Source of the DNA: a bacterium
Lineage (GTDB): Bacteria > Campylobacterota > Campylobacteria > Campylobacterales > Arcobacteraceae
Reading direction: 5' to 3'
Assembly: GCA_018816105.1 (NCBI GenBank)
Contig: JAHIWE010000113.1
Span: 13,340-77,339 of the forward strand
DNA length: 64,000 nt
The translations under genes and the position numbers were made by a program. The notes beneath the pieces are model-generated. The model made no database searches, was not told the origin of the DNA, and saw only the letters and a list, made by a program, of their open reading frames with translations. Position 1 is the stretch's first letter. Every line of letters starts with the position of its first letter. Below are positions 2,200 to 33,686 of this stretch, piece by piece.

Positions 2200-2265
2200 A
2201 TTTATTTATAGTAAAGATTAGTTAGAATAACACCTTTAAAAATAATGTAACCATAGGATAAATTT

Positions 2266-3507: not shown

Positions 3508-3510
3508 TAT

Positions 3511-3532
3511 TAAGGTGGATTTTTCCACCTTA
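3511..3532 (+). terminator. Hairpin after argG
   Basis: taaggtgga-tttt-tccacctta, a perfect 9-bp stem just after the argG stop, followed by a T-rich tract. Confidence 0.75.
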
Positions 3533-3575
3533 TATTAAAACTTTTTTCACTTACTTATTTTTTTTCTTTCATTTT

Positions 3576-3613
3576 TAATTGTAACTTAACTGTAATTGTA
3601 ACTTAACTGTAAT
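3576..3613 (+). repeat. Perfect 17-bp tandem duplication (taattgtaacttaactg x2 + taat)
   Basis: Units read directly at 3576-3592 and 3593-3609, plus a partial unit at 3610-3613. Confidence 0.95.
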
Positions 3614-3629
3614 CCTTAATAAATAGAAT
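3579..3629 (+). promoter_or_regulatory. Pho-box-like (OmpR/PhoB-family) direct repeats plus -10 element
   Basis: TTGTAAC-TTAA-CTGTAAT at 3579-3596 and 3596-3613 (11-bp half-site period), then exactly 10 nt, then TAGAAT (3624-3629). The same geometry occurs upstream of phnF. Confidence 0.7.
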
Positions 3630-3654
3630 TGTTCACCTTACTAATGGAACAATC

Positions 3655-4746
3655 ATGTATTTAAACGATTTAGAAAAAATCATTAACATAAACTCATATA
3701 CAAAAAACAAAAAAGGTGTAGATGAAGTTGGTACTATAATGTCTAAATGGATAGAAGAGTTAGGCTTTAAGTTAAAAACTTATAATAAAGAACATATTGG
3801 TAATCATCTCTTATTCTCCTCCTCTAAAAAATCTGGAAAAAAAATCTTACTTTTAGGTCACAATGACACTGTTTTCCCACCAAATAGTTTTGAAGGATTT
3901 TCCCAAGATGAAAAATGGGTTTATGGACCTGGTGTTTGTGATATGAAAGGTGGGAATATTGTTGCACTTCAAGCTCTTAGAAACATTTTCAATCAAAATA
4001 GTGAAATATATAATATAGACTTTTTACTAGTTTCTGATGAAGAAACAGGAAGTGACGACTCAAAAGAGATAACAGCTTTACTTGCACCAAATTATGACTA
4101 CTGTTTTGTATTTGAAGCAGCAGGAATTAATATGGAAGTTGTAACCCAAAGAAAAGGGGTTGGAACTTTTATAATTACAATAGAAGGACTTGCAAGTCAC
4201 GCGGGAAATCATTATGATAAGGGAATTGATGCTAATTTAGAAGCTTCTTATAAACTTCAAGAGTTGGTAAAACTTACAAATCTAAAACTTCAAACAACTG
4301 TTAATGTTGGAAAAATAAATGGGGGAATTGGTGCAAATACAATCTCTCCAAAATGTGAACTACTTTTAGAAATCAGATATACCACTAATGATGAAAAAAT
4401 AAGAGTTCTAACTGCATTAAATAGAATTACAAATACTTCTTACATTACAGGAACTATTTCAACACTTAGTGGCTCAATCCAAAGAGATGTAATGCAAGAA
4501 AATTCAAAACAACTAATACTAATAAAAGAGTTAGAAACTATCACTAACTCTAAAATCTTAAGTGAAAAAAGAGGTGGAGTTAGTGATGCAAATATAGTTG
4601 CAAGTTGTGGAGTAACTACACTTGATGGTTTTGGGCCTTTTGGTGATGGAGATCATACAATAAAAGAGAGAGCCTTAAAAAGTAGTTTTAACTCAAGAAT
4701 AGAGTTAATGACAAAAATCTTAAATCATTTTCAAACAAATTTATAA
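3655..4746 (+). CDS. M20 family metallopeptidase (glutamate carboxypeptidase-like)
   Basis: 'GHNDTVF', 'GPGVCDMKGG', 'DEETGS', 'FEAAG', 'SHAG', 'GGVSDAN', 'DGFGPFGDGDHT'; no signal peptide. Confidence 0.9.
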   Translation: MYLNDLEKIININSYTKNKKGVDEVGTIMSKWIEELGFKLKTYNKEHIGNHLLFSSSKKSGKKILLLGHNDTVFPPNSFEGFSQDEKWVYGPGVCDMKGGNIVALQALRNIFNQNSEIYNIDFLLVSDEETGSDDSKEITALLAPNYDYCFVFEAAGINMEVVTQRKGVGTFIITIEGLASHAGNHYDKGIDANLEASYKLQELVKLTNLKLQTTVNVGKINGGIGANTISPKCELLLEIRYTTNDEKIRVLTALNRITNTSYITGTISTLSGSIQRDVMQENSKQLILIKELETITNSKILSEKRGGVSDANIVASCGVTTLDGFGPFGDGDHTIKERALKSSFNSRIELMTKILNHFQTNL

Positions 4747-4758
4747 AAAGGGGACAAA

Positions 4759-5688
4759 GTGGCAAAAAGAAATATTGGTATGTGGTTATATCAAAATAGT
4801 GGTGGAGAACAAATCCAAAAGAAAATGATTAAGTTGTTAAAAGATAGGGAAATTGATGTTCTTGCAAATGTAAATTTAAAAAATGCTATTGCAAAAAATG
4901 GTCATATTATTTATGAGATGAAAGACAAAAAAGTAAAACTTGATAAATTAGATTTATTCTTCTCTTATAATGCAGGGGAACAAACTCCGTATCAAGTCTA
5001 TTTATATAAAGCCTTAAATAGAATCATTCCAATGATAAACTCTTATGAAGCATTTGAATTAAGTGAAGATAAATTTCATACCTCATTTTATTTACGTAAA
5101 CATGGAATAAGAACAGCTGATTATAAACTTTGTCATAGTGATGACTCTCATAGATTAAATACTATTATGAAACAATGGGAGAAAATGGTTTACAAACCAA
5201 CTGATGGTTGGGGAGGAATGGGAGTTACAAAAATAGACAGTGTTGAAGCTTTAAATATGTTAATTCCTTTTTTAAGTCAAATAAATCTTAAATATTTTTA
5301 TGTGGAAAAATATGTAGATTATGATAACACAGATTATAGAGTAGACATTGTTGATGGACAATATGTTGCTTGTTATGGAAGAAAAGCAGCAACAGGACAT
5401 TGGAAAACAAATGTTACAAGTGGTGGAAGTGTATTTTTAAGAGAAGCAAATGATGAGATAGTTAATCTTGCAATTAAAGCTAGTAAAACTTTAGGATTAG
5501 ATATTGCTGGTGTTGATATTATTTTTGATAGAAAAAAAGAAGAATATATAGTTTTAGAAGTAAATGGAATTCCTGCTTTTGCAACTCCAGATCAAGAAAA
5601 AATGGGCTTAAATTTTAACGATAAGAAAATAGATTTAATCGTTGATTTAATAGATAGAAAAACTATTAAAAAGGAAAATGAAAAATGA
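4759..5688 (+). CDS. RimK/LysX-like ATP-grasp amide ligase
   Basis: GTG start with GGGGA SD; 'EDKFHTSFYL', 'VYKPTDGWGGMGV', 'DYRVDIVDG', 'WKTNVTSGG', 'GVDII', 'LEVNGIPAF'. Confidence 0.88.
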   Translation: MAKRNIGMWLYQNSGGEQIQKKMIKLLKDREIDVLANVNLKNAIAKNGHIIYEMKDKKVKLDKLDLFFSYNAGEQTPYQVYLYKALNRIIPMINSYEAFELSEDKFHTSFYLRKHGIRTADYKLCHSDDSHRLNTIMKQWEKMVYKPTDGWGGMGVTKIDSVEALNMLIPFLSQINLKYFYVEKYVDYDNTDYRVDIVDGQYVACYGRKAATGHWKTNVTSGGSVFLREANDEIVNLAIKASKTLGLDIAGVDIIFDRKKEEYIVLEVNGIPAFATPDQEKMGLNFNDKKIDLIVDLIDRKTIKKENEK

Positions 5689-7181
5689 AAAAATTACCAA
5701 AAATAGGATTCTTATATTTAGATTTTGTATTACAATTCTTTAATAAATCAAACTTCAAAGCTTGGCCTGACAAAATAGAGTCTGTTACATATCATTGGAA
5801 AAATGATAAAGATAGATTCATAAAAGAGGTAAAAAGAAAAAAAATTGAAATTCTAGTTGGAAATATTCCAGCAACTGCCTATGAAACCTTTGTTGAAATA
5901 TCAAAAGAGTTGCCAAATGTAAGATTTGTTCCATCTATTGAAACACAATTTTCAAATAAATCAAAGGAAAATGTAACGCTTTTTTGTAAAAAATTTGATT
6001 TAGCAATTCCAAAAACAAAAATTTTTTATGATAAAGAAAAAGGTTATAAATATTTAAAAGAAAAAGCCTCTTATCCTCAAATCATCAAAAGATCTTATGG
6101 ACCATCAAATTATGGTGGATATTTTGTACATAAAGCTAATAATTTCAAAGAAGCAAAAAAACTTCTTGATGAGAAAAAATATAATCCAATTTATACTCAA
6201 AATGCTATTGATTTAAAAGATTCTGGGGATATTAGAGTAATGTTAATTGGTCATAAACCAATTTGTGCATTTTGGAGATATTCAGGTAAAAACCAATGGA
6301 TTACAAACACTTCACAAGGAGGTTCAATGTCATATGAAAATGTTCCTATGAATGCGTTAGAACTTGCCGTTAAAGCCTCAAAAGCTGCAAAAGCTGAATA
6401 TTGGGCTTGTGATATTGCAATTTGTGCAAAAACTGGAAAAGCTTATATTTTAGAGTGTGCGACTGCCTTTGCTGCATTTCCATATATACGAGATTGGATT
6501 TGTCAATATTTAATGTGGGATTTTTCAAAAGGAAGATTTAGCAAACCTCATATTCCCCTATTCTCTTGGGAAGAGTTAGGAAAAATTGATTCAAATTTAT
6601 TAAGAACTTTAAGACATATTGGCTTTAGTAAATACACAGCTAGTTATGATGGAGAATATTTTATCAATGATAAAAAAGATACCTATGAAATGGAACTAGC
6701 ACTTTTATCAGATGAATCTGATGTTCCTCAAAAACCAGAAGATTGTATCCAATTAGAGGCTAACAAAAATTATACAAAAGAGAAAATATTTGAAATAAAC
6801 AAGATAAATTTAAATACTGCAACACTAACTGATTTAATGTCACTTTATGCAATGGAAGAGGATTTAGCTTTACAAATACAAGAGTATCTTCAAGACAATA
6901 TCATTACAGATAGTTCTGATTTATTAGAACTTGAAGCAATAGATGAACAAATGCTTAAATCTTGGGATAGAAATATTGATGATATGAGAGTAGATATAAA
7001 TAGAATTGATAAAGATAATTTGAGAAAAATAAAAGGTATTGGTAAAAAATTAGCAAAAATAATCTCTGAACACAGAGATGCCAATGGATATTTTAAAAAT
7101 CTAGATGAATTAAAAGATATTGAAGGAATTGGCAAAAATAAATTTGCCCAATTAAAATCCCGATTAAAAATAGGAGAATAA
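5685..7181 (+). CDS. ATP-grasp domain protein fused to two C-terminal ComEA-type helix-hairpin-helix repeats
   Basis: ATGA overlap with the upstream gene; 'IIKRSYGPSNYGG', 'DIRVMLIG', 'WITNTSQGG', 'ACDIA', 'ILECA'; C-terminal 'INLNTAT...' and 'VDINRIDKDNLRKIKGIGKKLAKII...LKDIEGIGKNKF'. Confidence 0.85.
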   Translation: MKKLPKIGFLYLDFVLQFFNKSNFKAWPDKIESVTYHWKNDKDRFIKEVKRKKIEILVGNIPATAYETFVEISKELPNVRFVPSIETQFSNKSKENVTLFCKKFDLAIPKTKIFYDKEKGYKYLKEKASYPQIIKRSYGPSNYGGYFVHKANNFKEAKKLLDEKKYNPIYTQNAIDLKDSGDIRVMLIGHKPICAFWRYSGKNQWITNTSQGGSMSYENVPMNALELAVKASKAAKAEYWACDIAICAKTGKAYILECATAFAAFPYIRDWICQYLMWDFSKGRFSKPHIPLFSWEELGKIDSNLLRTLRHIGFSKYTASYDGEYFINDKKDTYEMELALLSDESDVPQKPEDCIQLEANKNYTKEKIFEINKINLNTATLTDLMSLYAMEEDLALQIQEYLQDNIITDSSDLLELEAIDEQMLKSWDRNIDDMRVDINRIDKDNLRKIKGIGKKLAKIISEHRDANGYFKNLDELKDIEGIGKNKFAQLKSRLKIGE

Positions 7182-7185
7182 GTTC

Positions 7186-9771
7186 TTGAAAAGGTTATAT
7201 AGGTCATATAGTGAATCAACAAACATTTTTAAAGAATTGGAAGCTAAATATCCTAATTATTTCAAAATTGAATCAATAGGTAATACTTGGGAAAATAGAG
7301 AGATAAATTTAATTACAATTTCAAAAGATATTAAAACAGCCGATTCAAGACCAGCTCTATTTTATACAGGAACTATTCATGCAAGAGAGTGGATTGGTCA
7401 TGAATTAGCTATAGAGTTTGCAATATATGTACTAAAAAATCTTGAAACTGACCCTACTTTACAAACTTACTTAAATGAAAGTACAGTTTATATGGTTCCT
7501 TGTGCCAATCCTGATGGTTATGAGTATTCAAGAAAACACTTCTCTTTTTGGAGAAAGAATAGAAGACAAAATGCTGATGGAACTTATGGAGTTGATTTAA
7601 ATAGAAACTTTCCTATAGGTTTTGTAAAATCAACTGCTACTACTTCAAATGTTTATGGAGGACCTGAACCATTTTCTGAACCTGAAACACAAGCTCTTAG
7701 GGATTTTGTTTTAAGTCATTCTAATATTACAATAGCTTTAGATTATCATAGTCAAGGAAATGTATTTTTTCCTGCCCACGATTTTAGACATGAAGATACT
7801 ATTGATACAACTGATATGAACACTTTATGTGCAAATATGACTGAAGAGATTAGAAAAATATCAGGTCGAGAGTATGGAATACATCAAGGTAAACCACCAG
7901 CAAAATTAATAGGAGGAAGTGGAAGAGAATTTTATTATTCAAATAAAATTATCTCATCTGTTGTAGAAGTTGGAACTAGAAATATAAGTGATTATATGGA
8001 AGATATGAACGAAAATATTAGAGAACATATTCCAGCACTTATTTATGCCCTTAAAGAAGCTGATAATTACGCTAAAGACAATATTATGAAAAGGGTTAAC
8101 TCTTTTAATGTTACAGAAATTGGCTCAAACCACGTAAATCTAAAATGGGATTATGAATTAAACGAAAATACATATTTTGAAATTTTTAGAAGTACAAAAG
8201 ATAAACAATTTTGCAATAGTTCAAATTTAATCTCAAAAACTCAAAGTTTAGAGTTTAATGATATTAATCTAGGTTCAAATAAAGATTATTACTACAATAT
8301 AAGAGCTGTAAATAAAAAAACAAACCAAAAATCACCCTTTTATCCACAAATAAAAATACGTACATTAATAGAATATGATGAATATAGTAGAACCTACTAT
8401 GCAAATGCAAAAGGTACTGGATATGTGGCAGAAAATCTAAATAATAATCCTAGTCATTTTGGAGTGAACTCATTGTTTGTAGGAGTTGATGAAAATAAGG
8501 GAATTTCATATGCAGTTATTTCTATTAATGTAAAATCACTTCCATCAAATGCTTTAATAAAATTAGCTTCAATTAATCTATACCCAATAAATAGAGTTTC
8601 AACAACTATTGAAAAATATGGTGAGTGGAATATAGGACTTGTAAATCAAGAAACTATGGGAGATATTACAAACTTTGATGATGTAGCTAATATGCAAATA
8701 ATAAGATATGTTGGACGTCCTACAGAATCACACCAATTAACCCAAGGAATTTGGAGGACTTGGAGTCTGTCTGGTTTGGAATGTAATGATTTAAAAAAAT
8801 CAATTAAAAATGAAGCTATTGTTTTAAGAGTTGAAGGTCCAAAAGAGCTAAGAATTGGAAGAACAAAACAGATGATGCAATGGGATATTGGTTATGGCTC
8901 ATTTGGTTTTGGATTGGCTTATAGACCAAGATTAGAACTAACCTATACAATTGAACCAACCACAACTGCTCTTTATGCTAAATCAATTAAAACAGTTAGT
9001 AAAGCTGAGCTTATAGATGATGTGATTACAGCTGGTTTTGATGTAAAGGGAAATAAGATATATTCAACTTTTCAATTTAATTTATCTTCTCTTCCTCCAT
9101 ACAATGACACCATGATTACTAAAGCCTATTTTGAATTAAACTCTACAAAGATTTATATAAAAGATGATATTAGGTTTCATTTAGAATTTGTGGATGAAAA
9201 TATTGATAAAAACTATGAAGATATTACAAATAGAGAAATAATTCAAAATATCGGTTATGATGTAAGTGCAACAGAATTAAAAAATAATCAAACCCAATAT
9301 TTTATGTTTGATTCTTTTTCTGAAATAATTTTAAATGAAAAACTAAAAAGCAAATCTGATATTTCATTTGTGTTAGAACCCACTTCTGCATTAAAAATTA
9401 TAAAAAATAAAACTGTTTCATGGGAAGTATCAAATAAATCTTTATGTCCAAAACTTATTCTTGAACATATACCAAAAAGAAGATTTCCTATTGAAAAAAT
9501 TACAAATGCAAAATTATCCTTAGAAAATGGGAAAATAAAAATCTCTTGGACAAATCCTAAAAATCCAGATTTTGTAGGAGTAAAAGTAATAAAAAATCCA
9601 TTTAGAAAACCTATTTCAGCACAAGATGGACAAAAACTTTATGCAGGAGTTGATGAGTATACTTTAGATGATTTTGGAGCAAGTGATATAAATAAATACT
9701 ATGCAATATTTACCTACGATGATGTTCCAAATTATTCAAAACCTATAATTTTAGAGTATATTGCTAAATAG
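7186..9771 (+). CDS. M14 zinc carboxypeptidase with FN3-like and beta-sandwich accessory domains
   Basis: TTG start with AGGAG SD; 'HAREW', 'NPDG', 'WRKNR', 'GVDLNRNF', 'DYHSQG', 'VEVG'; FN3-like 'VNLKWDY...YYYNIRAVN'; two 'S(L)P...I..A...' segments resembling DNRLRE/CBM96-type domains; no signal peptide. Confidence 0.85.
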   Translation: MKRLYRSYSESTNIFKELEAKYPNYFKIESIGNTWENREINLITISKDIKTADSRPALFYTGTIHAREWIGHELAIEFAIYVLKNLETDPTLQTYLNESTVYMVPCANPDGYEYSRKHFSFWRKNRRQNADGTYGVDLNRNFPIGFVKSTATTSNVYGGPEPFSEPETQALRDFVLSHSNITIALDYHSQGNVFFPAHDFRHEDTIDTTDMNTLCANMTEEIRKISGREYGIHQGKPPAKLIGGSGREFYYSNKIISSVVEVGTRNISDYMEDMNENIREHIPALIYALKEADNYAKDNIMKRVNSFNVTEIGSNHVNLKWDYELNENTYFEIFRSTKDKQFCNSSNLISKTQSLEFNDINLGSNKDYYYNIRAVNKKTNQKSPFYPQIKIRTLIEYDEYSRTYYANAKGTGYVAENLNNNPSHFGVNSLFVGVDENKGISYAVISINVKSLPSNALIKLASINLYPINRVSTTIEKYGEWNIGLVNQETMGDITNFDDVANMQIIRYVGRPTESHQLTQGIWRTWSLSGLECNDLKKSIKNEAIVLRVEGPKELRIGRTKQMMQWDIGYGSFGFGLAYRPRLELTYTIEPTTTALYAKSIKTVSKAELIDDVITAGFDVKGNKIYSTFQFNLSSLPPYNDTMITKAYFELNSTKIYIKDDIRFHLEFVDENIDKNYEDITNREIIQNIGYDVSATELKNNQTQYFMFDSFSEIILNEKLKSKSDISFVLEPTSALKIIKNKTVSWEVSNKSLCPKLILEHIPKRRFPIEKITNAKLSLENGKIKISWTNPKNPDFVGVKVIKNPFRKPISAQDGQKLYAGVDEYTLDDFGASDINKYYAIFTYDDVPNYSKPIILEYIAK

Positions 9772-9794: not shown

Positions 9795-9841
9795 AAAGCT
9801 CAAAAGCTATAATATTTTAAAAAACTTTACAGGATTAAAAT

Positions 9842-22225: not shown

Positions 22226-22229
22226 AATA

Positions 22230-22907: not shown

Positions 22908-23645
22908 TTATAAAGTAAAAGAAAAATCTCCTTTTACATAAGGATATTTTAGTTCTATATTGTTTTGCAAAATATACTCTTGTGTTGTATGAGATATATG
23001 CATCAAATAAGCTTTTTCTACTTTCATTTTATCCAAAATTTCACTTGCTTGTAAATAATTTAGATGATTTCCTAGACTTTTTCTCTCATCATAACAAGCA
23101 TCAATAAAAGCATAATCTATTTTCTTAGTTAATAAAAAATCTAAACTCTCTTTTGAAATTCCACTACAATCAGTTAAATAAGCAATTGTTCTATCTTTAT
23201 ATTCTATTAAATATCCAAAAGTATTTTTTGAGTGTTTTAAAGGAATTGAAGTAAATGAAATATTTTTAATTTTAATAGTTTCAAATTGTTTTATTTCTTT
23301 ATAACATATTGAATGATTATATTTAAATAAATCAGAAAAACCATTTTCATCCTTTGGATGAAAGCAGTTTATTTCATCATTTGAATGTCTAAGTTTCAAA
23401 AGTCCTAAACAATGATCAGCATGGAAATGAGTAAGTAGAACTGTTTCTATTTTATTTCCATCAAATCGTGATGAAATATCTTCTATTCCTGCATCTAATA
23501 GGATTATAGTGTCATCAATTTTTATATATGCACAAGTTGAAAGATTTTGTTTTTTTTCTTCCCTATGATTTTCACAAACTATACAAGGGCAGTTATGAAC
23601 AGGAATTCCTGCACTATCACTGCTACCTAAAAAACTAAATTTCAT
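22908..23645 (-). CDS. phnP: Phosphoribosyl 1,2-cyclic phosphate phosphodiesterase (MBL fold)
   Basis: 'GIPVHNCPCIVC', 'LDAG', 'THFHADH', 'YLTD', 'NHLN', 'HISH'; terminal position in the phn operon. Confidence 0.9.
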   Translation of the reverse strand: MKFSFLGSSDSAGIPVHNCPCIVCENHREEKKQNLSTCAYIKIDDTIILLDAGIEDISSRFDGNKIETVLLTHFHADHCLGLLKLRHSNDEINCFHPKDENGFSDLFKYNHSICYKEIKQFETIKIKNISFTSIPLKHSKNTFGYLIEYKDRTIAYLTDCSGISKESLDFLLTKKIDYAFIDACYDERKSLGNHLNYLQASEILDKMKVEKAYLMHISHTTQEYILQNNIELKYPYVKGDFSFTL

Positions 23646-24165
23646 CTATTTCCTTTAATATATCAATAAAAGCTTTTATACTATCATCAAATGATTTATC
23701 ATTTTGAAATACTATAAGATTTCTAGCATAAATCTTATCATATTTTCTCTCTAATCTTTTTTCAATCTCTTTAATATTTTCTCTTCCTCTTTTGATAAGT
23801 CTTCGTTTTAATTCAACATCATTTAAAGTAATATTTATTACATAAACCTTATCAAAATGCTTTTCAAAATCAGCTATTTTTGATCTTGAAATAGAAATAA
23901 TATTTGTTTTATTTTTTATTGAATCTTTTGAAATTCCATATAAATTATTATGTGCTTCCCAAGAAGAGATAAAAAACTCATTCTCTTTCAAAAGTTTAAA
24001 AGCAGAGTTTTCTAAGAAAAAGTTTTTTTCATTTTTATCTGGTTTTCTTGTAATATAACGTCTTATAAAATTAAACTCTTTCTTTAACTCTTTTTTGGCT
24101 TCTTTTATTAATGTATCTTTTCCAACACCACTTGCACCAACAATTAAAATTATTTTTGTTTGCAT
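23635..24165 (-). CDS. phnN: Ribose 1,5-bisphosphate phosphokinase
   Basis: P-loop 'GASGVGKDT', 'RRYITR', 'WEAHNNLYG', 'RGRE'. Confidence 0.92.
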   Translation of the reverse strand: MQTKIILIVGASGVGKDTLIKEAKKELKKEFNFIRRYITRKPDKNEKNFFLENSAFKLLKENEFFISSWEAHNNLYGISKDSIKNKTNIISISRSKIADFEKHFDKVYVINITLNDVELKRRLIKRGRENIKEIEKRLERKYDKIYARNLIVFQNDKSFDDSIKAFIDILKEIDEI

Positions 24166-24167
24166 TT

Positions 24168-24812
24168 CTACTCTTTTTTTGAATATTTATAAATAAATTC
24201 TCTAATATCTTTTAAATCAGCCAATCTATCTTTGATTTCATTATGGCTCCAATCCCACCAAGCTATTTTTTCAATTGATAGGATAATATCACTTGGAAAT
24301 CTATATTTTAAGATTTTAGCTCCAACACCAGCAACTATAGCAAAAGCTGGTACATTTTTAGTTACGACTGCATTTGAACCTATTATTGCACCATTACCTA
24401 TTTTAATTCCAGGCATAATTACAGCACCATGACCTATCCAAGTATCATGACCAATTAGAACTTGTTGAGTTTTTCTATAATTAAAAAAAGCTTCATCATT
24501 TTCTCCAAATCCATACATTTCACGTCTATAAAGTAAGTGATGTTGACAAGGCATTTCGTAAGGGTGAAATCCTGGGTTTATTCGAACATTACTTGCAATA
24601 TTTGCAAACTTACCTATTTGTGTATTTGCAATTTGTGTGTATTCGCTCACATATGAATAATCACCCAATGAAGAATCACTAATATTTGCATAATTTGCAA
24701 TTTCAGTATACTTTCCGAAATATGAGTTTTTTATAATTGCATTAGGGAAAATGTATGGTTTTTCCCCTAATACTACTTTGGCTTCACTATTAAGACTCTC
24801 TATTTTTGTCAT
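24168..24812 (-). CDS. Phosphonate-metabolism hexapeptide-repeat acetyltransferase
   Basis: 'GDYSYV', 'IGKFANIASNVRINPGFHP', 'IGHDTWIGHGAVIMPG', 'AWWDW'; located within the phn operon. Confidence 0.88.
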   Translation of the reverse strand: MTKIESLNSEAKVVLGEKPYIFPNAIIKNSYFGKYTEIANYANISDSSLGDYSYVSEYTQIANTQIGKFANIASNVRINPGFHPYEMPCQHHLLYRREMYGFGENDEAFFNYRKTQQVLIGHDTWIGHGAVIMPGIKIGNGAIIGSNAVVTKNVPAFAIVAGVGAKILKYRFPSDIILSIEKIAWWDWSHNEIKDRLADLKDIREFIYKYSKKE

Positions 24813-24868
24813 TATATTTTACCTCTATATGCAATATACTTCTAAAAATCGTAACCATATTATTTCCT

Positions 24869-26008
24869 TTATAATTTAAAGCCTCTAATTCCATTATAAA
24901 TTGATTCACCATCTTTGATAGTAAGAACAACTTTTGGAATATTACTATCATCAATTACTATAATATCAGCTCTTTTACCTTCAGCTATCACACCCCTATC
25001 ATCTAAATTTGCATAAGCTGCAGGTGTTGATGTAACCATTGAAAATCCTTTTTCTAAAGGTAAATTTGCATCTTCTTTCATTCTATATACTGCTTGAAGC
25101 ATTGAAGTTGGATGATAATCTGAACACAAGTATTTACAAACTCCTTCACGTACTAACTCAATTGCTGCAATGTTACCACTTTGGCTTCCACCTCTTACAA
25201 TATTTGGAGCTCCCATTCCAGTTGCAATTCCTTTTGAAACTGCAAATTTTGCAACTTCTAAATCTAGTGGAAACTCTGAAATCTTAACTCCAATATCTAA
25301 AAGCCCTTGAAGTTTTTGTATACAATCATCATCATGACTTAAAAGAGTAAGATTATGTTTCTTTGCATGATTGATTAAATCATTTATCTTATCTTCATCT
25401 TTATTTAATTTTTTATTTACTACATCTTGAACTTCATCATCATCTAAACCATAATAATTAGAGTAATAAGTTTTAAATTTTTCAAGTGTTTTAAATTGTC
25501 CTTGACCAGGTGAATGATCCATCAAAGATAATAGTCTAATCATTCCCAAATCAATTAACTCTTTTATTGGTTCAACTGCATCTGTTGCGCTTAATTCAAA
25601 TCTTGCATGAATAAAGTTATCAACTCCTAAATGATTCTTATTTGCTTTATAAATCTCTTCTATTTGATGTTGAGCTAGATATAAACTTCTTTTTTTCTTT
25701 GGATTTTCTTCAAAACCAATAGCGTGAAACATTGTAGTAACTCCTGCCATTGAAAGTTTTTTATCAAGTTCTGCAACTGCTAATTCAACTGGAAATGTAG
25801 CACCATGTCTAGGTTCTATCTCTTTTTCAATAGCATCTGAGTGTAAATCCACAATTCCAGCAACTACTTTTTTATCACCTAAATCAACAGCAATTTCATT
25901 TTTCCCATACTCATCAATTCTTTGAATAAATTCACCTTTGATTACAAGATCTGCACTTATAAACTTTTCATTTATTAAAACATTTTTACTTCTTAAAATT
26001 GTTTCCAT
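24869..26008 (-). CDS. phnM: Alpha-D-ribose 1-methylphosphonate 5-triphosphate diphosphatase
   Basis: 'GIVDLHSDAIEKEIEPR', 'AGVTTMFHA', 'MDHSPGQGQ', 'SHDD', 'MGAPNIVRGGSQSGN', 'LCSDY'. Confidence 0.96.
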   Translation of the reverse strand: METILRSKNVLINEKFISADLVIKGEFIQRIDEYGKNEIAVDLGDKKVVAGIVDLHSDAIEKEIEPRHGATFPVELAVAELDKKLSMAGVTTMFHAIGFEENPKKKRSLYLAQHQIEEIYKANKNHLGVDNFIHARFELSATDAVEPIKELIDLGMIRLLSLMDHSPGQGQFKTLEKFKTYYSNYYGLDDDEVQDVVNKKLNKDEDKINDLINHAKKHNLTLLSHDDDCIQKLQGLLDIGVKISEFPLDLEVAKFAVSKGIATGMGAPNIVRGGSQSGNIAAIELVREGVCKYLCSDYHPTSMLQAVYRMKEDANLPLEKGFSMVTSTPAAYANLDDRGVIAEGKRADIIVIDDSNIPKVVLTIKDGESIYNGIRGFKL

Positions 26009-26010
26009 TT

Positions 26011-26715
26011 TTATTTAACTCTCTGTAATTTATATATTTTATCACTTATAATTTCCATTGCTTCAAGGTCATGAAAAATCCCAACCATTGCAACACCTTG
26101 AGTCTTTAGCTCTTTTAATTTCTCAACAACTTTCATAGTATTTGTTTTATCAAGTGAAGCTGTTGGTTCATCAAGTAAAAGTAAAGATTTTGGAGCAATT
26201 ATTCCTTTTGCAATATTTACTCTTTGTTGCTCCCCACCAGAAAAAGTTAAAGGAGATAAATCAAATAATTCTTCTCTAATTGATAAATAATCTAACATCT
26301 CTTTTGCTTTTTGTCTTGCGACTTCTTGGCTTTCACCTTTGAAAATCAACTGCTCACTTACAACATCAACAGCACTAACTCTTGGAAGAATTTGTAAAAA
26401 CTGTGATACATAACCAATTTCACTCTTTCTAAGATTTAGTATTTCACTCTCACTAGCATTTGCAATATCAATAGTGCTACCATTATCTTTATGAAAGATT
26501 ATATTTCCACTTGTTGTTGTATATGTTCTAAAAAGAGTTTTTAGAATCGATGATTTTCCAGCACCACTTGGTCCATAAAGAGATAAAAACTCCCCTTGTT
26601 TTACACTTAGATTTATATTTTCAAAACCTTTTACTTCAATACTTCCACGAGTATGAATTTTAAAAGTTTTATTCAGGTTTTTAACTTCTAATCTAATTAT
26701 ATTTTTCATAATCAT
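26011..26715 (-). CDS. phnL: C-P lyase system ABC-ATPase subunit PhnL
   Basis: 'GPSGAGKSS', 'IGYVSQFLQILPRV', 'PLTFSGGEQQRVNIA', 'LLLDEPTASLD'. Confidence 0.95.
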   Translation of the reverse strand: MIMKNIIRLEVKNLNKTFKIHTRGSIEVKGFENINLSVKQGEFLSLYGPSGAGKSSILKTLFRTYTTTSGNIIFHKDNGSTIDIANASESEILNLRKSEIGYVSQFLQILPRVSAVDVVSEQLIFKGESQEVARQKAKEMLDYLSIREELFDLSPLTFSGGEQQRVNIAKGIIAPKSLLLLDEPTASLDKTNTMKVVEKLKELKTQGVAMVGIFHDLEAMEIISDKIYKLQRVK

Positions 26716-26720
26716 GCTCC

Positions 26721-27557
26721 TTATAAAATCGATGACACAAGAAGTTGTGTATATGGATGTTGTGGATCTTCTAAAATTTGATCTGTTAGTCCACTTTCTA
26801 CTATTTGACCATTTTTCATAACAACCGTAATATCTGTTAGGTGTTTAATAACGCCTAAATCATGGCTTACAACAACCATTGCAAAACCAATTTCATGCTG
26901 TAACTCTTTTATTAAATCAAGTATTTTTGCCTGAACTGATAAATCAAGTCCAGTTGTAGGCTCATCTAAAAGTAAAATCTTTGGATTAGAAGACAATGCT
27001 TTTGAAATTTGAATTCTTTGTTGTTGTCCACCTGAAAAATACTCAGGATAATCATCAATTCTACTTGTTGGAATCTCCGTTTTATCTAAGAAATACAAAG
27101 CTCTATTTCTAATCTCTTCATACTTTTTATTTCCACTTCCAATAACTTTTTGTGCAATATTTCCGCCTGCTGAAAAATTATAATTAAGTCCTAGTCTTGG
27201 ATTTTGGTAAATCATAGACATCAAAGAGTTTCTCAAAAAAGATAACTCATTTAGGTTTGCATCTAAGATGTTTTTTTTCTCACCTTTTGAATCAATAAAA
27301 TCTTTTACAAAAATCTCTCCAAGACTTGCTTTTTGGTCTTGATAAATAAGCTGTAAAAGTGTTGATTTTCCACTTCCACTCTCACCTACGATTCCTAAAA
27401 CTTCACCTTGATTTAAAGATAAATTTACATTATTCACACCAACTACGCTTTTACAAGTAGGACAAATTGAACTATTAAATGAAGCTCCGGTATGCTCTAG
27501 GCATTTAGGACAAAACTTTCCAAAAACCTTTGATAAATTTTTTATATCTAATATCAT
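26721..27557 (-). CDS. phnK: C-P lyase system ABC-ATPase subunit PhnK
   Basis: 'GIVGESGSGKST', 'FSGGQQQRIQI', 'DEPTTGLDLSVQA', 'EDPQHPYTQLLVSS'. Confidence 0.95.
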   Translation of the reverse strand: MILDIKNLSKVFGKFCPKCLEHTGASFNSSICPTCKSVVGVNNVNLSLNQGEVLGIVGESGSGKSTLLQLIYQDQKASLGEIFVKDFIDSKGEKKNILDANLNELSFLRNSLMSMIYQNPRLGLNYNFSAGGNIAQKVIGSGNKKYEEIRNRALYFLDKTEIPTSRIDDYPEYFSGGQQQRIQISKALSSNPKILLLDEPTTGLDLSVQAKILDLIKELQHEIGFAMVVVSHDLGVIKHLTDITVVMKNGQIVESGLTDQILEDPQHPYTQLLVSSIL

Positions 27558-28378
27558 TTTTTATCCCCACTTTGTTCATCACAATAATCTGTATCATTAC
27601 AATAATATTTTAACTCACCATTATCATCATACACTTCATCTAAAAATGAGTTTGAACTCCCACATCTTTGACAAACTTGCCCTTCGAAGTTTTCAACTTT
27701 AAACTCTCTATCTTCAAATTTAAGTGGTTCAACATTTGTATAAGGTGGAATTGCATAAATCTTCTTTTCACGTCCTGCACCAAAAAGCTGTAAAGCTTTG
27801 TTGTTATTTAGTTTTGGTGTATCATATTTTGGAATGGGACTTGGATCCATGGCATATCTGTTATGTACCATTACTGGATATCTATTTGAAATCCTACTAT
27901 CACCAAACATTGAAGTATCCTCATATAATAAAACCCATAGTTTTGAATAATCAGCATTTGCGTGCATAATTTTTTGTTTTGCTGTATTTGGCTCAACTGT
28001 TTCTAAAATATCAGGCATTGGAACTTGATACACAAGTGTTTGTCCCTCTTCTAACTCAATTTCAGGAATTCTATGTCTTGTTTGAATAATCGAAGCTTCA
28101 GTTGTTTTTGTTGTAGTTTTTACATTTGTAACTGAACTTATAAAATTTCTAATATTTACAGCATTTACACTTCCATCACAACCTTGGTCTATTACTTTTA
28201 AAGTATCACTTTCGTTTATAATTGCAAGTGTTATTTGCAATCCTCCAGTTCCCCAACCACGTGCTACTGGCATCTCTCTACTTGCAAAAGAGACAATATA
28301 TCCAGGAATTGCAATAGCTTTTAAAATAGATCTTCTAATCTCTTTTTTAGCTTCTTCATCTAAAAATGCATATCTCAT
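27554..28378 (-). CDS. phnJ: Alpha-D-ribose 1-methylphosphonate 5-phosphate C-P lyase (radical SAM)
   Basis: 'GWGTGGLQ', 'KVIDQG', 'IQTRHRIPE', 'GAGREKKIYAIPPYT', and the C-terminal Cx2C...Cx5C cluster motif. Confidence 0.97.
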   Translation of the reverse strand: MRYAFLDEEAKKEIRRSILKAIAIPGYIVSFASREMPVARGWGTGGLQITLAIINESDTLKVIDQGCDGSVNAVNIRNFISSVTNVKTTTKTTEASIIQTRHRIPEIELEEGQTLVYQVPMPDILETVEPNTAKQKIMHANADYSKLWVLLYEDTSMFGDSRISNRYPVMVHNRYAMDPSPIPKYDTPKLNNNKALQLFGAGREKKIYAIPPYTNVEPLKFEDREFKVENFEGQVCQRCGSSNSFLDEVYDDNGELKYYCNDTDYCDEQSGDKK

Positions 28379-29445
28379 TTTTTAGCTCCTTTTATATCTT
28401 CTTCTTTTACATATTTACTTGCACTTTTAAATACTTGATAATCAGTTTGAAATGTCACATAGTGTGGTAATTTATAGTGATTTGCAAAACCAAATGACTC
28501 TATTCCATCCACATGGTGCATCATCATTTCAAAATCACTAGCAACTATTTGTTCAGTTCCAACAGTATATGAGTCGTTGTATAAAGTTAAATCAATAATT
28601 GATATTGAAATAGCTTTTGTTTCATTTTTTCCAAAACAAAATCCAAAACCAGTTGTAAGTCTAGTTTGTCCATCACTATCTTTATTAAAAGTTCCAGCAC
28701 TCTCAACTGCTGTTGCTTCAATTGAACCTATTTTTACTTTATTTTTAGTAAAGGGATGGGTAAATACAATATCCAACTCCCCTATTCTTAAATCCCCAAT
28801 TGTAGGGTGAACATCACCATAACCTCTCATAGAGGTATATGCAAATCCAAGTAAACTTCCACTTTCACCTCTGCTCATAACTTGAAGTAAGGCACTTCGT
28901 GGATATGGAGCATTTGGGAATACCCTTGTAATATCCCACGGTTCTTGCTCTTTTGGTAATATTTTTATTAAATTATCTTCTCTTAATGGAGTTAGTGCTG
29001 ATTTAATTACATTATCTTTTGTTGAGTATTCTTCAATATCTACTTTTTCATTTTTTAGATCAACTAAAAGTTTTATTTCATAATCATTTGAAGCTCCTAA
29101 AAGTTGACCACCTTCAATATCTTTAAAAGCTGATGAAATTCTTCTTGTTAATCTCATATCATTTACATCTAACTCTTTACAAATTCCAATTCTTTGACAA
29201 GATGACCTATGCGCTCTTAAAAAAAATGAAGCATTTAATAAATCCCCTGCACTTCTTTTAATAGCACGAGCTGCGAGTTTTTTACTATATAAAGCACCCT
29301 CACTAAGAACTTTATCAATTGAAAAAGTAAAGGCATCTATTAAATCTTCATCATCAATTTTGCTAGATTTTGAAGTAATATCATTATAAAAATTCAAAGA
29401 GTTTCTAATAGCTTCTTCCCCACCTTTTATTGCATAATATGCCAT
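28375..29445 (-). CDS. phnI: C-P lyase complex subunit PhnI
   Basis: 'IKGGEEAI', 'RRISSAFKDIEGGQLLG', 'RGYGDVHP', 'NETKAIS', 'HVDGIESFGFANHYKLPHYVTFQ'. Confidence 0.96.
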   Translation of the reverse strand: MAYYAIKGGEEAIRNSLNFYNDITSKSSKIDDEDLIDAFTFSIDKVLSEGALYSKKLAARAIKRSAGDLLNASFFLRAHRSSCQRIGICKELDVNDMRLTRRISSAFKDIEGGQLLGASNDYEIKLLVDLKNEKVDIEEYSTKDNVIKSALTPLREDNLIKILPKEQEPWDITRVFPNAPYPRSALLQVMSRGESGSLLGFAYTSMRGYGDVHPTIGDLRIGELDIVFTHPFTKNKVKIGSIEATAVESAGTFNKDSDGQTRLTTGFGFCFGKNETKAISISIIDLTLYNDSYTVGTEQIVASDFEMMMHHVDGIESFGFANHYKLPHYVTFQTDYQVFKSASKYVKEEDIKGAKK

Positions 29446-29982
29446 TTAGATAACCTCCACTTTTGTAGTTCTTGATAGTGCAACTATTTGAGCATTTTCA
29501 TCTAAGAAGAAAACTTCATTTCCTAAAGGAAAATATGAATTTTTTTCATTAAAAAACTCGATAAACGACTTATCAACGGGAAGATTTACAATCTTTTCTT
29601 TATTAATTCCAGGACCACTTAGTTTTACTTTTAAACCATTAAAATCCTTACATTTAAAAATCAAAGTTCCTGAAAATTCAGGGTCCTTTGAAGTTCCTAT
29701 TTTTCCTTTAGTAAGTAAATATTCATTTATTTCATCACAAAAAATATAATCAGCTTCACACTCTTTAGTTTTTGATGCATTTGTAATTGCATCAAGTAAA
29801 TCAAACTCTTCAATACCTTCATAAAAATAACTCACTTCTGAATAAAGTAAACAATTTGCAATTGCCAAAAGATTTGATTCAAAAAGTGGTTTTATTTTTT
29901 CTATATTTCCTGGCATTGATAAGGCATTCATTATTGATTTAAAATTTTCTCTATTTAATTTTTCTATATCAACTATATTCAT
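29446..29982 (-). CDS. phnH: C-P lyase subunit PhnH
   Basis: 'MNALSMPG', 'GTSKDPEFSGTL', 'LSGPGI', 'FPLG', 'LSRTT'. Confidence 0.93.
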   Translation of the reverse strand: MNIVDIEKLNRENFKSIMNALSMPGNIEKIKPLFESNLLAIANCLLYSEVSYFYEGIEEFDLLDAITNASKTKECEADYIFCDEINEYLLTKGKIGTSKDPEFSGTLIFKCKDFNGLKVKLSGPGINKEKIVNLPVDKSFIEFFNEKNSYFPLGNEVFFLDENAQIVALSRTTKVEVI

Positions 29983-29994
29983 TTTTTATCCAAT

Positions 29995-30408
29995 TTAAAG
30001 TAAATCAAAAGAAACACGAGTTGAGTTTACTTTTTGATTTATTTTTCTATTTTTTTCTTCATTATCATTTTTTGCATTTTCTAAAATATTTGTTATTTCA
30101 TCTGTATAAATATTTGCCTCAAAACAAGCATCTAGTGATGCTATGTAAAGAGATAATTCTTCGTTACTATCCATTACCATTGCCCAACCTTTTGTATTTT
30201 CAACCTGAACAATAGTTGAAGTTACAAGAACTTCACCTGCATAAAAACTCCCATTTGAAATGGGATCTTTTACAGGAACAAGTAAAGTTTGTTCAGTTGG
30301 TGCTGTTAAAACTTTTACACCATAATTTTCATCAATTTTTTCATATAATTTTTTTAATTCTTCAATTTTTACTAATTGAGCAAAATTGTTAATATCTTCT
30401 CTTTTCAT
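29995..30408 (-). CDS. phnG: C-P lyase subunit PhnG
   Basis: 'FYAGEVLVT', 'VNSTRVSF', position upstream of phnH. Confidence 0.9.
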   Translation of the reverse strand: MKREDINNFAQLVKIEELKKLYEKIDENYGVKVLTAPTEQTLLVPVKDPISNGSFYAGEVLVTSTIVQVENTKGWAMVMDSNEELSLYIASLDACFEANIYTDEITNILENAKNDNEEKNRKINQKVNSTRVSFDLL

Positions 30409-31266
30409 TTATATAAACCTTTTTCTAATTACTGAACTTAACTTATCTAAAGCCCAAACGGTAATCACAATAATTATAATAATCGTACAAACGTCATTGT
30501 TTTCAAATGCTCTCATTTTGTCAAACAGATAAAATCCAATCCCACCAGCTCCTACAAATCCTAAAATAGAGGCACTTCTAACATCTGATTCAAATCTATA
30601 TAAAGCCATTGAAATAAAATGTGGCATAGTTTGAGGAATAACAGCAAATACTAAAACTTTTATAAATCCAGCACCTGTTGTTGTTAAAGCTTCAACAGGA
30701 CCTGGATCAATTGCTTCATTTCCTTCACTAAGTAGCTTACACAATACTCCTGATGTATGAATCCCCAAAGCTAAAATTCCAGCCATTGGTCCAAGACCAA
30801 CTGCACTTACAAAAATTAAGGCCCAAATAATTTCATTAATTGATCTAAAAATATTTGCAACTAAAGTTGCACTTGCATATATTGTTTTTTTAATAAATTC
30901 ATGAAAAGGAGTTTTTCCAGGAATTAAAATATTTAATATATTTCTTGAACACATATATGACAATGGAACTGCGATAATTATAGAAATCACCAAAGCAATT
31001 ATTGCCATTTGAATAGTTTCAAGCATAGCTAGAGAATAATCCATTAAATCACTACTATTTAGATTTGGAGGAAAGAATCCACTATCTTCAATTTCAGGAT
31101 TTCCCATAATATATTCATGCATATATCTTCCACCATCAATTAAAAATGATATATCCATTTGAGTATCGTTCCAACTTTTTACAACTATTAGAACAAGTAT
31201 AAGTATTATCAGTGTCTTATAAAAAGAAAAAGGATTACTCTCTTTTCTTAATTCATTTACATTCAT
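30409..31266 (-). CDS. phnE: Phosphonate ABC transporter permease
   Basis: 'RSINEIIWALIF', 'GLGPMAGILAL', 'YRFESDVRSASILGFVGAGGIG'. Confidence 0.95.
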   Translation of the reverse strand: MNVNELRKESNPFSFYKTLIILILVLIVVKSWNDTQMDISFLIDGGRYMHEYIMGNPEIEDSGFFPPNLNSSDLMDYSLAMLETIQMAIIALVISIIIAVPLSYMCSRNILNILIPGKTPFHEFIKKTIYASATLVANIFRSINEIIWALIFVSAVGLGPMAGILALGIHTSGVLCKLLSEGNEAIDPGPVEALTTTGAGFIKVLVFAVIPQTMPHFISMALYRFESDVRSASILGFVGAGGIGFYLFDKMRAFENNDVCTIIIIIVITVWALDKLSSVIRKRFI

Positions 31267-31281
31267 CTATTTTCCTTGAAA

Positions 31282-31307
31282 TAAAAGAGAAGAAATCTTC
31301 TCTTTTA
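31282..31307 (-). terminator. Stem-loop between phnD and phnE
   Basis: taaaagagaaga-aa-tcttctctttta inverted repeat (about 11-bp stem); on the minus strand it is followed by a T-rich stretch. Confidence 0.7.
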
Positions 31308-31313
31308 AAATAT

Positions 31314-32180
31314 TTATTTTTTAGCTTCTAACTGTTTTTTTACTTCAATTAAATCTCTAACAGGGTTATACATAGAATCATTTGCTTCTACATAACCTTT
31401 AATTTTTAATTTCTCTAAACCATCTTTATCCCTATAAGAAAGAAATGCTTCTTTTAATGCCATTTTTAAAGATACTGGTAAATCACCACGTGCTGCCATT
31501 GGAGAACCAGGAATTAAATCAGAAGTCCAAATAATGTTAAAATCATTTTCATTCCATGCTTTTCCCAATCCTCTGTTATAATCTAAAGTATTTGTTGAAG
31601 CAGCATCAACTTTTCCTGCTTTAATTGATAATATTGAAGCCTCATGCCCACCTGAATATAAAACTTTTGAAAAATATTGTTGAGGATCAATTCCTGATTT
31701 TGAAAACATTACCATTGGAACTAAAGTTCCTGAAGTTGATTGAGATGATGTAAATGCCCAAGTTTTACCTTTGATAGAATCTAAAGTATTTAAACCACTA
31801 TCTTTTTTAGTAATAATAATCCCTTTATAACCTGGTAATCCAGATTCTGCATCAACTTCAACAACTAAAGCTTCTGCATTTGCTCTTTTTTGTGCTTCAA
31901 CATAAGATTTTGGGCCAAAATAAGCCACATCAATATGTTTATGTTGCATACCTGTAATTACACCTGTGTAATCACCTGCAAGTTGTAATTCAACTTTAAT
32001 ACCTAATTTTTTTGCTAAATGATCTGTTAAAGCTGAAAAATTCTCTTTCATTGATGTTGAACCAGCAACTGGAATTACTCCAAAATTGATTTTTTCTGGC
32101 CATTTTTCTTCAGCCATTGTTGTAGTTACACTAAGACCTAATGCAAGAGTTGCAAGTGCGATTTTTTTGATTAGTTTCAT
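31314..32180 (-). CDS. phnD: Phosphonate ABC transporter substrate-binding protein
   Basis: Signal peptide, 'YFGPKSYV', 'STSGTLVP', 'SGGHEASI'. Confidence 0.95.
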   Translation of the reverse strand: MKLIKKIALATLALGLSVTTTMAEEKWPEKINFGVIPVAGSTSMKENFSALTDHLAKKLGIKVELQLAGDYTGVITGMQHKHIDVAYFGPKSYVEAQKRANAEALVVEVDAESGLPGYKGIIITKKDSGLNTLDSIKGKTWAFTSSQSTSGTLVPMVMFSKSGIDPQQYFSKVLYSGGHEASILSIKAGKVDAASTNTLDYNRGLGKAWNENDFNIIWTSDLIPGSPMAARGDLPVSLKMALKEAFLSYRDKDGLEKLKIKGYVEANDSMYNPVRDLIEVKKQLEAKK

Positions 32181-32215
32181 TTTTATTTCCTATTTATAGA
32201 TAATTTATTACACTA

Positions 32216-32947
32216 TTAATTAGCATAAATTTTTTCAACTAACTTTTCAGTTAAGTTTTCACTGTTGTCGTCAAAAACTACTGTTCCATTATTAACTCCG
32301 ATTATTCTGTCACAGTACTCTTTGGCATACTCCAAATGATGAAGGTTTGCAATTACGGTTACCCCATAAGTTTCATTAACCTTCTTCAAAATCTCCATAA
32401 CTTTTCTGGCACTTTTAGGATCAAGTGCAGATACAGGCTCATCAGCTAAGATAATCTTTGGTTCAGCGGCCAAAGCACGCGCAATTGCAACTCGCTGTCT
32501 TTGGCCTCCCGAAAGTTCATCACATCTTTTCATTGAATGTTTAGTAATATCAACAATATCCATATACTCTTTTGCTTTTTTTAGCTCCTTATCTTTATAA
32601 AGTTTAATAATTGCTCTACTTAATGGGATATCTTTTAACATGCCACTAATCACATTGTCTAAAACAGAAAGTCTATCAACAAGATTATAACCTTGAAAAA
32701 TCACACCAATTTGCTCTCTTAATTTAATTAGATTTTTCTTTTTAATATTATGTAAATCAAAATCTAAAACCTCAAATTTTCCATTAAATACTTTTATTCC
32801 ACCAGTAATTGACATCAATAAAGTAGATTTACCAGCACCACTTGGGCCAATGATTCCTATAAACTCACCTTTTTTTACTTTTAAATCTATATCTTTTAAA
32901 ATAATTTCTTTTTTATAACCTAAGGTTAAATTTTTCATTTTTATCAC
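32216..32947 (-). CDS. phnC: Phosphonate ABC transporter ATP-binding protein
   Basis: 'GPSGAGKST', 'IFQGYNLVDRL', 'LSGGQRQRVAIAR', 'ADEPVSALDP', 'NLHH'. Confidence 0.95.
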   Translation of the reverse strand: MIKMKNLTLGYKKEIILKDIDLKVKKGEFIGIIGPSGAGKSTLLMSITGGIKVFNGKFEVLDFDLHNIKKKNLIKLREQIGVIFQGYNLVDRLSVLDNVISGMLKDIPLSRAIIKLYKDKELKKAKEYMDIVDITKHSMKRCDELSGGQRQRVAIARALAAEPKIILADEPVSALDPKSARKVMEILKKVNETYGVTVIANLHHLEYAKEYCDRIIGVNNGTVVFDDNSENLTEKLVEKIYAN

Positions 32948-32960
32948 TATAAACTCCTGT

Positions 32961-33686
32961 TTAAATTAAATCTACTTTTATCTTGCAAATATCACCTCTA
33001 AAATAACTTGTTCCATATTCAACAAAATTTCCATTTTGGTCTTTTGAAATAGTACAAGCTGCTAATAAAGGAGAATTACTTGGCATCATCAAAAGTGTAC
33101 TTTGTTCTTTTGTTGCCATTACAGATTCAAAAATCGTCGAGATTTTTGTAACTTCTAAATTGGGATATGATTTTTCTAAGATTTTGTATAAAGAAAATGG
33201 TTTGCAATCGAGATTATTGATAAGTTCTCTATAAAGATAAGCATCAAAGTATGAATATGAAATAGAAATAGGTAAATCATTTGCAAATCTTAAAAGTCTA
33301 AATTCAATAACTTTTAATTTTGTATTAATACCAAGATTTTTAGCAACATCTTCACTAGCTTCAATAATATCAACACCTAAAAGAGTTGTTTTAGGTTCAT
33401 AACCTAAATCAAGTATTTTAGAGCTATAAGAACTTTTATCACTAATAGAATATGGAACTTTTATATTTGATATATAGGTTCCCTTTCCTAAAATTGTATA
33501 AATAAAACCTTCACTTTTTAATAACTCCAAAGCTTGTCTTATAGTATGTCTATTTACACAAAACTCTTTTGCAAATTCATTTTCAGAAGGTAATTTATCA
33601 TAGTTGTTATATTTTTTATTTTCAATATTATTTAAAATCTTTTCATACAATTTTAAATACATTGGTTTATCAGATTTTTTAAGCAA
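32961..33686 (-). CDS. phnF: GntR/HutC-family phosphonate regulator
   Basis: wHTH 'LPSENEFAKEFCVNRHTIRQAL...GKGTY' plus UTRA domain; first gene of the phn operon. Confidence 0.9.
   Translation of the reverse strand: MLKKSDKPMYLKLYEKILNNIENKKYNNYDKLPSENEFAKEFCVNRHTIRQALELLKSEGFIYTILGKGTYISNIKVPYSISDKSSYSSKILDLGYEPKTTLLGVDIIEASEDVAKNLGINTKLKVIEFRLLRFANDLPISISYSYFDAYLYRELINNLDCKPFSLYKILEKSYPNLEVTKISTIFESVMATKEQSTLLMMPSNSPLLAACTISKDQNGNFVEYGTSYFRGDICKIKVDLI

Follow-up and report, generated by a model that had tools for sequence, protein, structure and literature searches.

The DNA analysed here, referred to as the window, is a 64-kb stretch of an 89.7-kb metagenome contig. It has a G+C content of about 26%, and its proteins are closest to those of the Arcobacteraceae (Poseidonibacter, Malaciobacter, Halarcobacter and "Arcobacter" species). 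Two operons on opposite strands are the subject of this analysis:

3655..9771, + strand: four-gene operon of M20, two ATP-grasp and M14 genes
3655-4746, + strand: M20 peptidase
4759-5688, + strand: RimK-type ATP-grasp ligase
5685-7181, + strand: ATP-grasp ligase with ComEA-type HhH
7186-9771, + strand: M14 carboxypeptidase with a long C-terminal extension
22908..33686, - strand: phnF-phnCDE-phnGHIJKLM-acetyltransferase-phnN-phnP operon, the complete set for the C-P lyase pathway

The M14 protein is 861 residues long, its M14 (carboxypeptidase A/T-like) domain being N-terminal. In the second ATP-grasp ligase, the C-terminal ComEA-type HhH occupies residues ~431-495 and is a DNA-binding fold, which is odd for a peptide ligase; the Photobacterium homologue of this ligase has no HhH domain in Pfam. 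The four-gene module stays together across Arcobacteraceae, other Campylobacterota and Photobacterium, where the M20 member is divergent, and was found as such in the window and in loci L329, L330 and L331 (5718-12098). Within the family, copies of its ATP-grasp protein share 70-77% identity. The order of the phn genes is identical in L084-L088, L327, L328 and L332. Against the PhnF model, the phnF product scores 133.9 bits, below the cut-off of 156.8.

The 64-kb window contains none of the pst, phoB, phoR, phoU and phosphatase genes, and queries with E. coli PstS, PstC, PstA, PstB and PhoU gave no match in the window or in 90-odd Arcobacteraceae loci. An OmpR-like regulator is encoded at 41206-41925 and reaches 68.8 bits, against a PhoB cut-off of 296. 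Several sensor kinases with periplasmic amino-acid-binding domains are also encoded in the window, and GGDEF/EAL (cyclic-di-GMP) genes are unusually dense (652-2199, 13918-16287 and 35336-37222). Downstream of the M14 gene, no terminator separates it from a hexapeptide-repeat gene, which has a TATAAT of its own at 9808-9813. Between the convergent hexapeptide-repeat and dUTPase genes lies a perfect 16-pair AT-rich hairpin (10350-10385) with T-runs on both strands, likely a bidirectional terminator.

Direct reading of the region between argG and the M20 gene shows the following features:

3511..3532, + strand: G+C-rich hairpin after argG
3579-3585, + strand: TTGTAAC, followed by TTAA
3590-3596, + strand: CTGTAAT
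3596-3602, + strand: TTGTAAC, sharing T3596 with the preceding CTGTAAT and followed by TTAA
3607-3613, + strand: CTGTAAT
3580..3596, + strand: distal box with an 11-bp period, hexamers H1 (TGTAAC, 3580-3585) and H2 (TGTAAT, 3591-3596)
3597..3613, + strand: proximal box, hexamers H3 (TGTAAC, 3597-3602) and H4 (TGTAAT, 3608-3613)
3624-3629, + strand: -10 hexamer TAGAAT, exactly 10 nt (CCTTAATAAA) past H4, with the M20 ATG at 3655

The pair is an exact 17-bp tandem within 3579-3613, and H3 begins 6 bp past the start of H2. With hexamer starts at 3580, 3591, 3597 and 3608, the spacing is therefore 11-6-11, and the four do not share a single 11-bp phase. A search of 3300-3800 for a promoter of the -35/-10 type found none; transcription of the operon would be expected to start near 3636. 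The hairpin behind argG has a 9-pair stem (0.0 expected) and is conserved in relatives. It is likely the argG terminator, so that the downstream M20 operon would form a transcription unit of its own.

The promoter of the phn operon, read on the opposite strand, is organised as follows:

33777-33760, - strand: candidate operator O1, a perfect 18-bp palindrome (AACTTGTATATACAAGTT) that abuts the phnF box
33761-33744, - strand: phnF box, TTGTAAT (33761-33755), CTAT and CTGTAAT (33750-33744), by direct reading
33733-33728, - strand: -10 hexamer TATACT, 10 nt (TCACCTTTCT) past the phnF box
33716-33700, - strand: candidate operator O2, a palindrome (AACTTGTATAGACATGT) just past the expected phn transcription start
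33686, - strand: TTG start codon of phnF, by direct reading

The phnF intergenic region was likewise searched for a promoter of the -35/-10 type and yielded none, and the putative transcription start lies near 33721. The palindromes O1 and O2 (ACTTGTATAnACAAGT) flank the phn promoter and are probably operators of PhnF, a GntR/HutC regulator. They resemble the GT-N-TA-N-AC cores that are usual for HutC-type operators.

These readings bear out the sequences and coordinates that a preliminary description had given for both promoters. Its comparison of the two is likewise correct, since 13 of the 14 half-site positions match and the two promoters have the same spacing. The same description held that the M20-side motif occurs twice. 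Both copies are indeed present, but as a 17-bp tandem they fall out of one 11-bp phase.

The exact pattern TGTAAY-N4-CTGTAAT has three matches in the 64 kb, against 0.00 expected (100 shuffles), and all three lie in the two intergenic regions and point toward the downstream operon. Allowing up to two mismatches gives nine matches against 8.1 expected, which is chance level, so that the window shows no sites beyond these three; the half-site YTGTAAY by itself is present 101 times. When 665 kb of Arcobacteraceae loci were searched with a relaxed form of the pattern, the matches fell almost exclusively in these two promoter types, apart from three other places, which by our own estimate is about what chance would give. 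We discarded an additional TGTAAT-N5-TGTAAT between argG and the S4-domain gene of L009 as a chance match, since no -10 follows it at 10 nt and the close relative L329 lacks it.

For the M20 promoter, we aligned the regions 5' of the M20 gene from 80 metagenome loci with relatives of the ATP-grasp gene. The nine distinct promoters with an M20 protein of 83% identity or more all have one layout: H1 (t.TAA.), N5, H2 (TGTAA.), immediately H3 (TGTc.C), N5 and H4 (TGTAAT), followed by 10 nt, TA[G/A]AAT and 25-26 nt to the ATG. The 10-nt gap is constant among the nine, and the same four-hexamer layout recurs in a further relative on a 1.78-Mb contig (L329). In the nine promoters, 20 of the 24 positions in H2, H3, H4 and the -10 hexamer are invariant, compared with 12 of 38 in flanks and spacers; H4 is invariant throughout and H2 at five of its six positions. 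H1 is degenerate (TATAAC or CATAAC) in three of the nine, and H3 reads TGTCAC, TGTCTC, TGTTTC or TGTCGC in the relatives. The exact 17-bp tandem was found in the window lineage only. As the relatives keep the four-hexamer layout but vary in H3, the layout is ancestral in the clade, and the perfect duplication recent in the window lineage.

Beyond this clade the repeats disappear. They are not present in the M20 orthologues of at most 73% identity (~35 loci, many from hydrothermal metagenomes), which have a strong -10 of the TGnTATAAT type instead. A locus of the Poseidonibacter ostreae type, whose genes follow the same order as here (S4, trpD, argG, M20, ligases, M14), lacks them too, and Photobacterium sp. 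DA100, which has the same four-gene module, shows no Pho-box-like sequence. Site-based control of the four-gene operon, as predicted from these promoters, is thus specific to one clade.

The phn promoter has a far wider distribution. Its layout consists of an operator (ACTTGTnTAnACAAG), TGTAAY-N5-TGTAAT, 10 nt, TATACT, 12-16 nt and a second operator (CTTGTATAGACAAG), and is present in Poseidonibacter lekithochrous (GCA_003049765.1), Arcobacter roscoffensis (CP100595.1) and Halarcobacter anaerophilus (CP041070.1). The spacer varies among the seven aligned phnF promoters, but TGTAAY-N5-TGTAAT and TATACT are kept in all of them: of the 18 hexamer and -10 positions 17 do not change, whereas only 2 of the 15 in spacer and gap are constant. 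The O1 core (ACTTGTnTAnACAA) is likewise kept in seven of seven and occurs in a Malaciobacter mytili-like locus (L332) as well, the O2 motif is kept in all relatives, and both operators are conserved in eight loci. L332 has the same layout with TGTAAT-N5-TGTAAC and then TAAAAT. A differently organised phn locus of 59% identity (L333) has a degenerate copy of the box only. The putative phn site is therefore family-wide, while the M20-side site is confined to near relatives.

We also scanned 185,579 species genomes for four TGTAAY-type hexamers at an 11-bp period, one of them relaxed to TGTNNY, and at least 120 loci were listed. The matches listed include TGTAAY arrays directly ahead of pstS (L251) and of pstCAB-phoU (L257, L266), as well as ahead of an OmpR-type regulator that follows pstCAB-phoU (L282) and of a Na/Pi cotransporter with a PhoU domain (L314). 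These five loci come from Bacteroidales, Nitrospirae-type and unclassified MAGs. From their placement, TGTAAY repeats are predicted to serve phosphate genes in Gram-negative lineages, and the five arrays look like a TGTAA-type Pho box of those phyla.

Most of the matches listed are arrays of low-GC Clostridia ahead of mreB and of unrelated genes. In uncultured members (L210, L325, L222, L252, L315 and others) the arrays precede mreB and a function-unknown family of ~360-375 residues, and they are consistent with multi-site WalR boxes. The matches listed also contain 11-bp satellites and a Prolixibacteraceae repeat, in which TGTAAC/TGTAAT arrays are followed by an inverted copy and which has many copies in MAGs of that family (L228, L250, L255, L259, L278, L289, L292, L308, L317). 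No Arcobacteraceae locus is among the matches listed, which says nothing on absence from that family.

Two listed loci are from Campylobacterota (L306 1093-1131 and L316 747-785) and have four in-phase hexamers, 10 nt and then TAAAGT or TATGAT. One array precedes a lipoprotein that matches no Pfam family, the other an 80-residue ORF. The genes next to them, an LpxH-like metallophosphoesterase, a glycosyltransferase and PIN-PhoH, look like housekeeping genes. We considered and rejected phosphate-starvation lipid remodelling for these loci, as the phosphoesterase, with 71-80% conservation throughout the phylum, bears the annotation LpxH and lies beside dnaE in A. roscoffensis. In the latter species, TGTTAT-N5-TGTAAT, 10 nt and TAAAAT (L326 9962-9994) are found 6 nt before an LpxH-like phosphoesterase/patatin pair. 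It may be either a weak site for the regulator of the two window promoters or a chance match, ~1 of which is expected in the stretch searched.

Four wastewater RNA data sets (X25-X28) contain contigs 88-99% identical to the window. In X25 and X26, mean depth is ~140-500 at argG, 16-36 in the intergenic bin 3570-3843 and ~16-150, mostly 50-100, along the M20 operon. It is mostly 0-15 along the phn operon and 80-170 in the genes that flank it. The pattern in X27 and X28 is the same, phn being ~20-25-fold lower than the M20 operon. Taking the four sets together (2200-10400 and 22200-38200), phn lies ~20-fold below both its flanking genes and the M20 operon, and the depth of the latter is near that of neighbouring genes. 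RNA depth dips in the bin 3570-3843; the contigs report no transcript ends. The M20 operon is thus a separate unit that is transcribed where phn is nearly off, which weakens strict co-regulation of the two. These data are not decisive, since contig depth is crude, strains are mixed, the phosphate status is not given and PhnF alone could repress phn.

Taken together, the two promoters very probably carry direct-repeat sites for a regulator of the OmpR/PhoB family, a reading well supported by their sequence and conservation. We further consider it somewhat probable that one such regulator acts at both sites, that it responds most probably to phosphate starvation and that both promoters depend on it as an activator. 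What we observed directly are the sequences with their statistics, conservation and geometry, the lack of a -35 and the nature of the target genes; from these we infer binding by a response regulator, activation, a phosphate signal and the transcription starts.

According to this model, the regulator would bind TGTAAY repeats that stand head-to-tail at 11 bp, with the final hexamer 10 bp before a weak -10 and without a -35. Once bound, it would substitute for the contact at the -35 and bring in RNA polymerase, in the manner of E. coli PhoB. At the M20-side promoter, with two boxes 17 bp apart (hexamers at 0, 11, 17 and 28), only the proximal box would be placed correctly for the -10, and the distal box might help to load the regulator or give an alternative register. 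At phn, the box would sit between two PhnF operators, one abutting it and the other over the expected +6 to +22. The combination of an activator box with two such operators suggests an AND gate, in which firing of the operon would require both the activator and the release of PhnF.

The most serious alternative, which we regard as possible but distinctly less probable, is that a different OmpR-family regulator with another signal (organophosphonate, amino-acid/peptide or envelope) recognises these sites, and that phn and the M20 operon form a small non-phosphate regulon. The hexamer repeat is common to regulators with other roles, as the WalR consensus (PMC9210968) and the Clostridia mreB arrays illustrate, and the window and its relatives are rich in two-component systems, including the OmpR-like regulator noted above. 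Transcription of the M20 operon where phn is nearly off would also agree with another signal, as does the lack of a phosphate gene with the motif among the fetched Arcobacteraceae loci, which hold no pst/pho genes. On the other hand, WalRK belongs to the Firmicutes, and phn is a textbook Pho target. The PhoB-promoter geometry and the TGTCAC variants also argue for a Pho regulator, as do the TGTAAY arrays ahead of pst genes among the matches listed from other Gram-negative phyla.

Repression by the regulator, rather than activation, is improbable. A protein over the -35 region would here block the polymerase, and its release would switch the operons on. The site does cover the place where polymerase touches upstream DNA, promoters of Campylobacterota commonly work without a -35, and wastewater RNA shows appreciable expression of the M20 operon, all of which would suit a repressor. 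Yet the clade with the site has a weak -10 (TAGAAT, TAAAAT, TATACT) without a TG extension, while the orthologues without it have a strong TGnTATAAT, and such a contrast from weak to strong is the pattern expected when an activator compensates for a poor promoter. It is for this contrast that we favour activation over repression. Moreover, phn is already provided with a repressor of its own and two probable operators for it, and a constant spacing of 10 bp to the -10 is characteristic of PhoB-type activation. The last reading, a chance likeness or a recent slippage duplication without function, is very improbable: an AT-rich genome with 101 copies of YTGTAAY and a 17-bp tandem restricted to the window lineage would lend themselves to it, but against 0.00 expected exact matches stand hexamers kept in nine M20 and eight phnF promoters of several genera and an identical position relative to the -10 at two unrelated operons, and the conservation already contradicts it.

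Returning to a phosphate-responsive activator, the proposal of the preliminary description that an Arcobacteraceae Pho box drives the four-gene operon is overstated and holds only in part. The sites are real, conserved and similar to PhoB promoters, but the M20-side site is restricted to near relatives. We tentatively suggest that this clade rewired the module, with an unusual double Pho box of overlapping 11-6-11 layout taking the place of a strong, constitutive promoter, which would put the module under phosphate-starvation control. The unit perhaps rewired in this way would comprise the M20 peptidase, two RimK-type ligases (one with HhH) and a large cytosolic M14 carboxypeptidase. If true, this would point to a phosphorus-sparing or phosphorus-scavenging role of the module, for example in the assembly or shortening of an acidic peptide tail or polymer.

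If confirmed, the sites would also provide a Pho-box model for the Arcobacteraceae, YTGTAAY-N4-YTGTAAT, 10 bp and -10, unlike that of C. jejuni, in a family that is common in seawater, sediment and wastewater. For the C-P lyase operon they would describe a two-input promoter that combines a starvation activator with a substrate-released repressor, and for the conserved four-gene ligase/peptidase module, whose role is uncharacterised, they would give a first clue to regulation. As the mechanism as such is textbook knowledge, the gain would be modest; two features are nevertheless of some interest, namely the conserved 11-6-11 double box with its overlap and the position of the activator site between two PhnF operators.

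Comparing the two promoters with known regulatory systems separates two layers of control. Conserved palindromes near the promoter of a phnF-headed operon, as expected of PhnF/HutC operators, are found at the phn promoter only. Repression by PhnF would thus form a second, separate layer at phn, distinct from the TGTAAY repeat.

Within the phylum of the host, the relevant comparison is PhosS/PhosR of C. jejuni, whose response regulator is phosphate-responsive and of the OmpR family, and which to our knowledge is the only Campylobacterota Pho regulator studied. The repeat that Wosten et al. reportedly described for it in 2006 is based on GTTTC and unrelated to TGTAAY. Neither promoter in the window has a GTTTC repeat of this reported form, in agreement with the earlier view that the site here differs from that of C. 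jejuni. A literature search for a Pho box of the Arcobacteraceae, or for a link between Arcobacter and a Pho box, found none.

The closest match in sequence is the WalR (YycF/VicR) box. The WalR consensus of Firmicutes, TGTWAH-N5-TGTWAH (PMC9210968), is literally identical in hexamer and spacing to the sites described here, and WalR belongs to the same OmpR/PhoB subfamily. WalRK, however, is an essential cell-wall system of Firmicutes, whereas the host here is an Arcobacteraceae bacterium and the targets are phn and peptidase/ligase genes; neither a Firmicute with WalRK nor cell-wall targets are found. Since the TGTAAY repeat is also the WalR consensus, the sequence identifies the family of the regulator and leaves its signal unspecified.

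The E. coli Pho box, known from PhoB-dependent promoters such as those of pstS and phnC, shares the architecture: 7-bp direct repeats, an 11-bp period, 10 bp to the -10 and no -35. The E. coli pstS promoter, which we read as a control, has CTGTCAC, 10 nt and TATTTT, and so agrees with the spacing originally claimed for the window. The core half-site CTGTCAT (PMC4415409) is identical to YTGTAAY at six of seven positions, with A in place of C at position 5, and a TGTCAC half-site is literally present as H3 in relatives of the window. The phosphonate operon is a target common to both systems: phn is a member of the Pho regulon in E. coli (PMC4415409), and the gene calls confirm that the phnF-side site heads a C-P lyase operon of this classic kind. 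The M20-side boxes differ in that they overlap at a 17-bp offset (11-6-11) instead of following each other at 22 bp in phase, and the step of 6 bp from H2 to H3 departs from the classical PhoB array, in which repeats follow head-to-tail at 11 bp. Both promoters have at least two direct repeats of ~7 bp with an 11-bp period, the M20 promoter two such pairs. In both, and in all relatives, the proximal repeat lies ~10 bp from the -10 in place of a -35, and one of the two operons, phn, is Pho-regulated elsewhere. By analogy with E. coli and from the identity of this target, a Pho box is the most likely identity of the sites, an assignment we make with moderate confidence.
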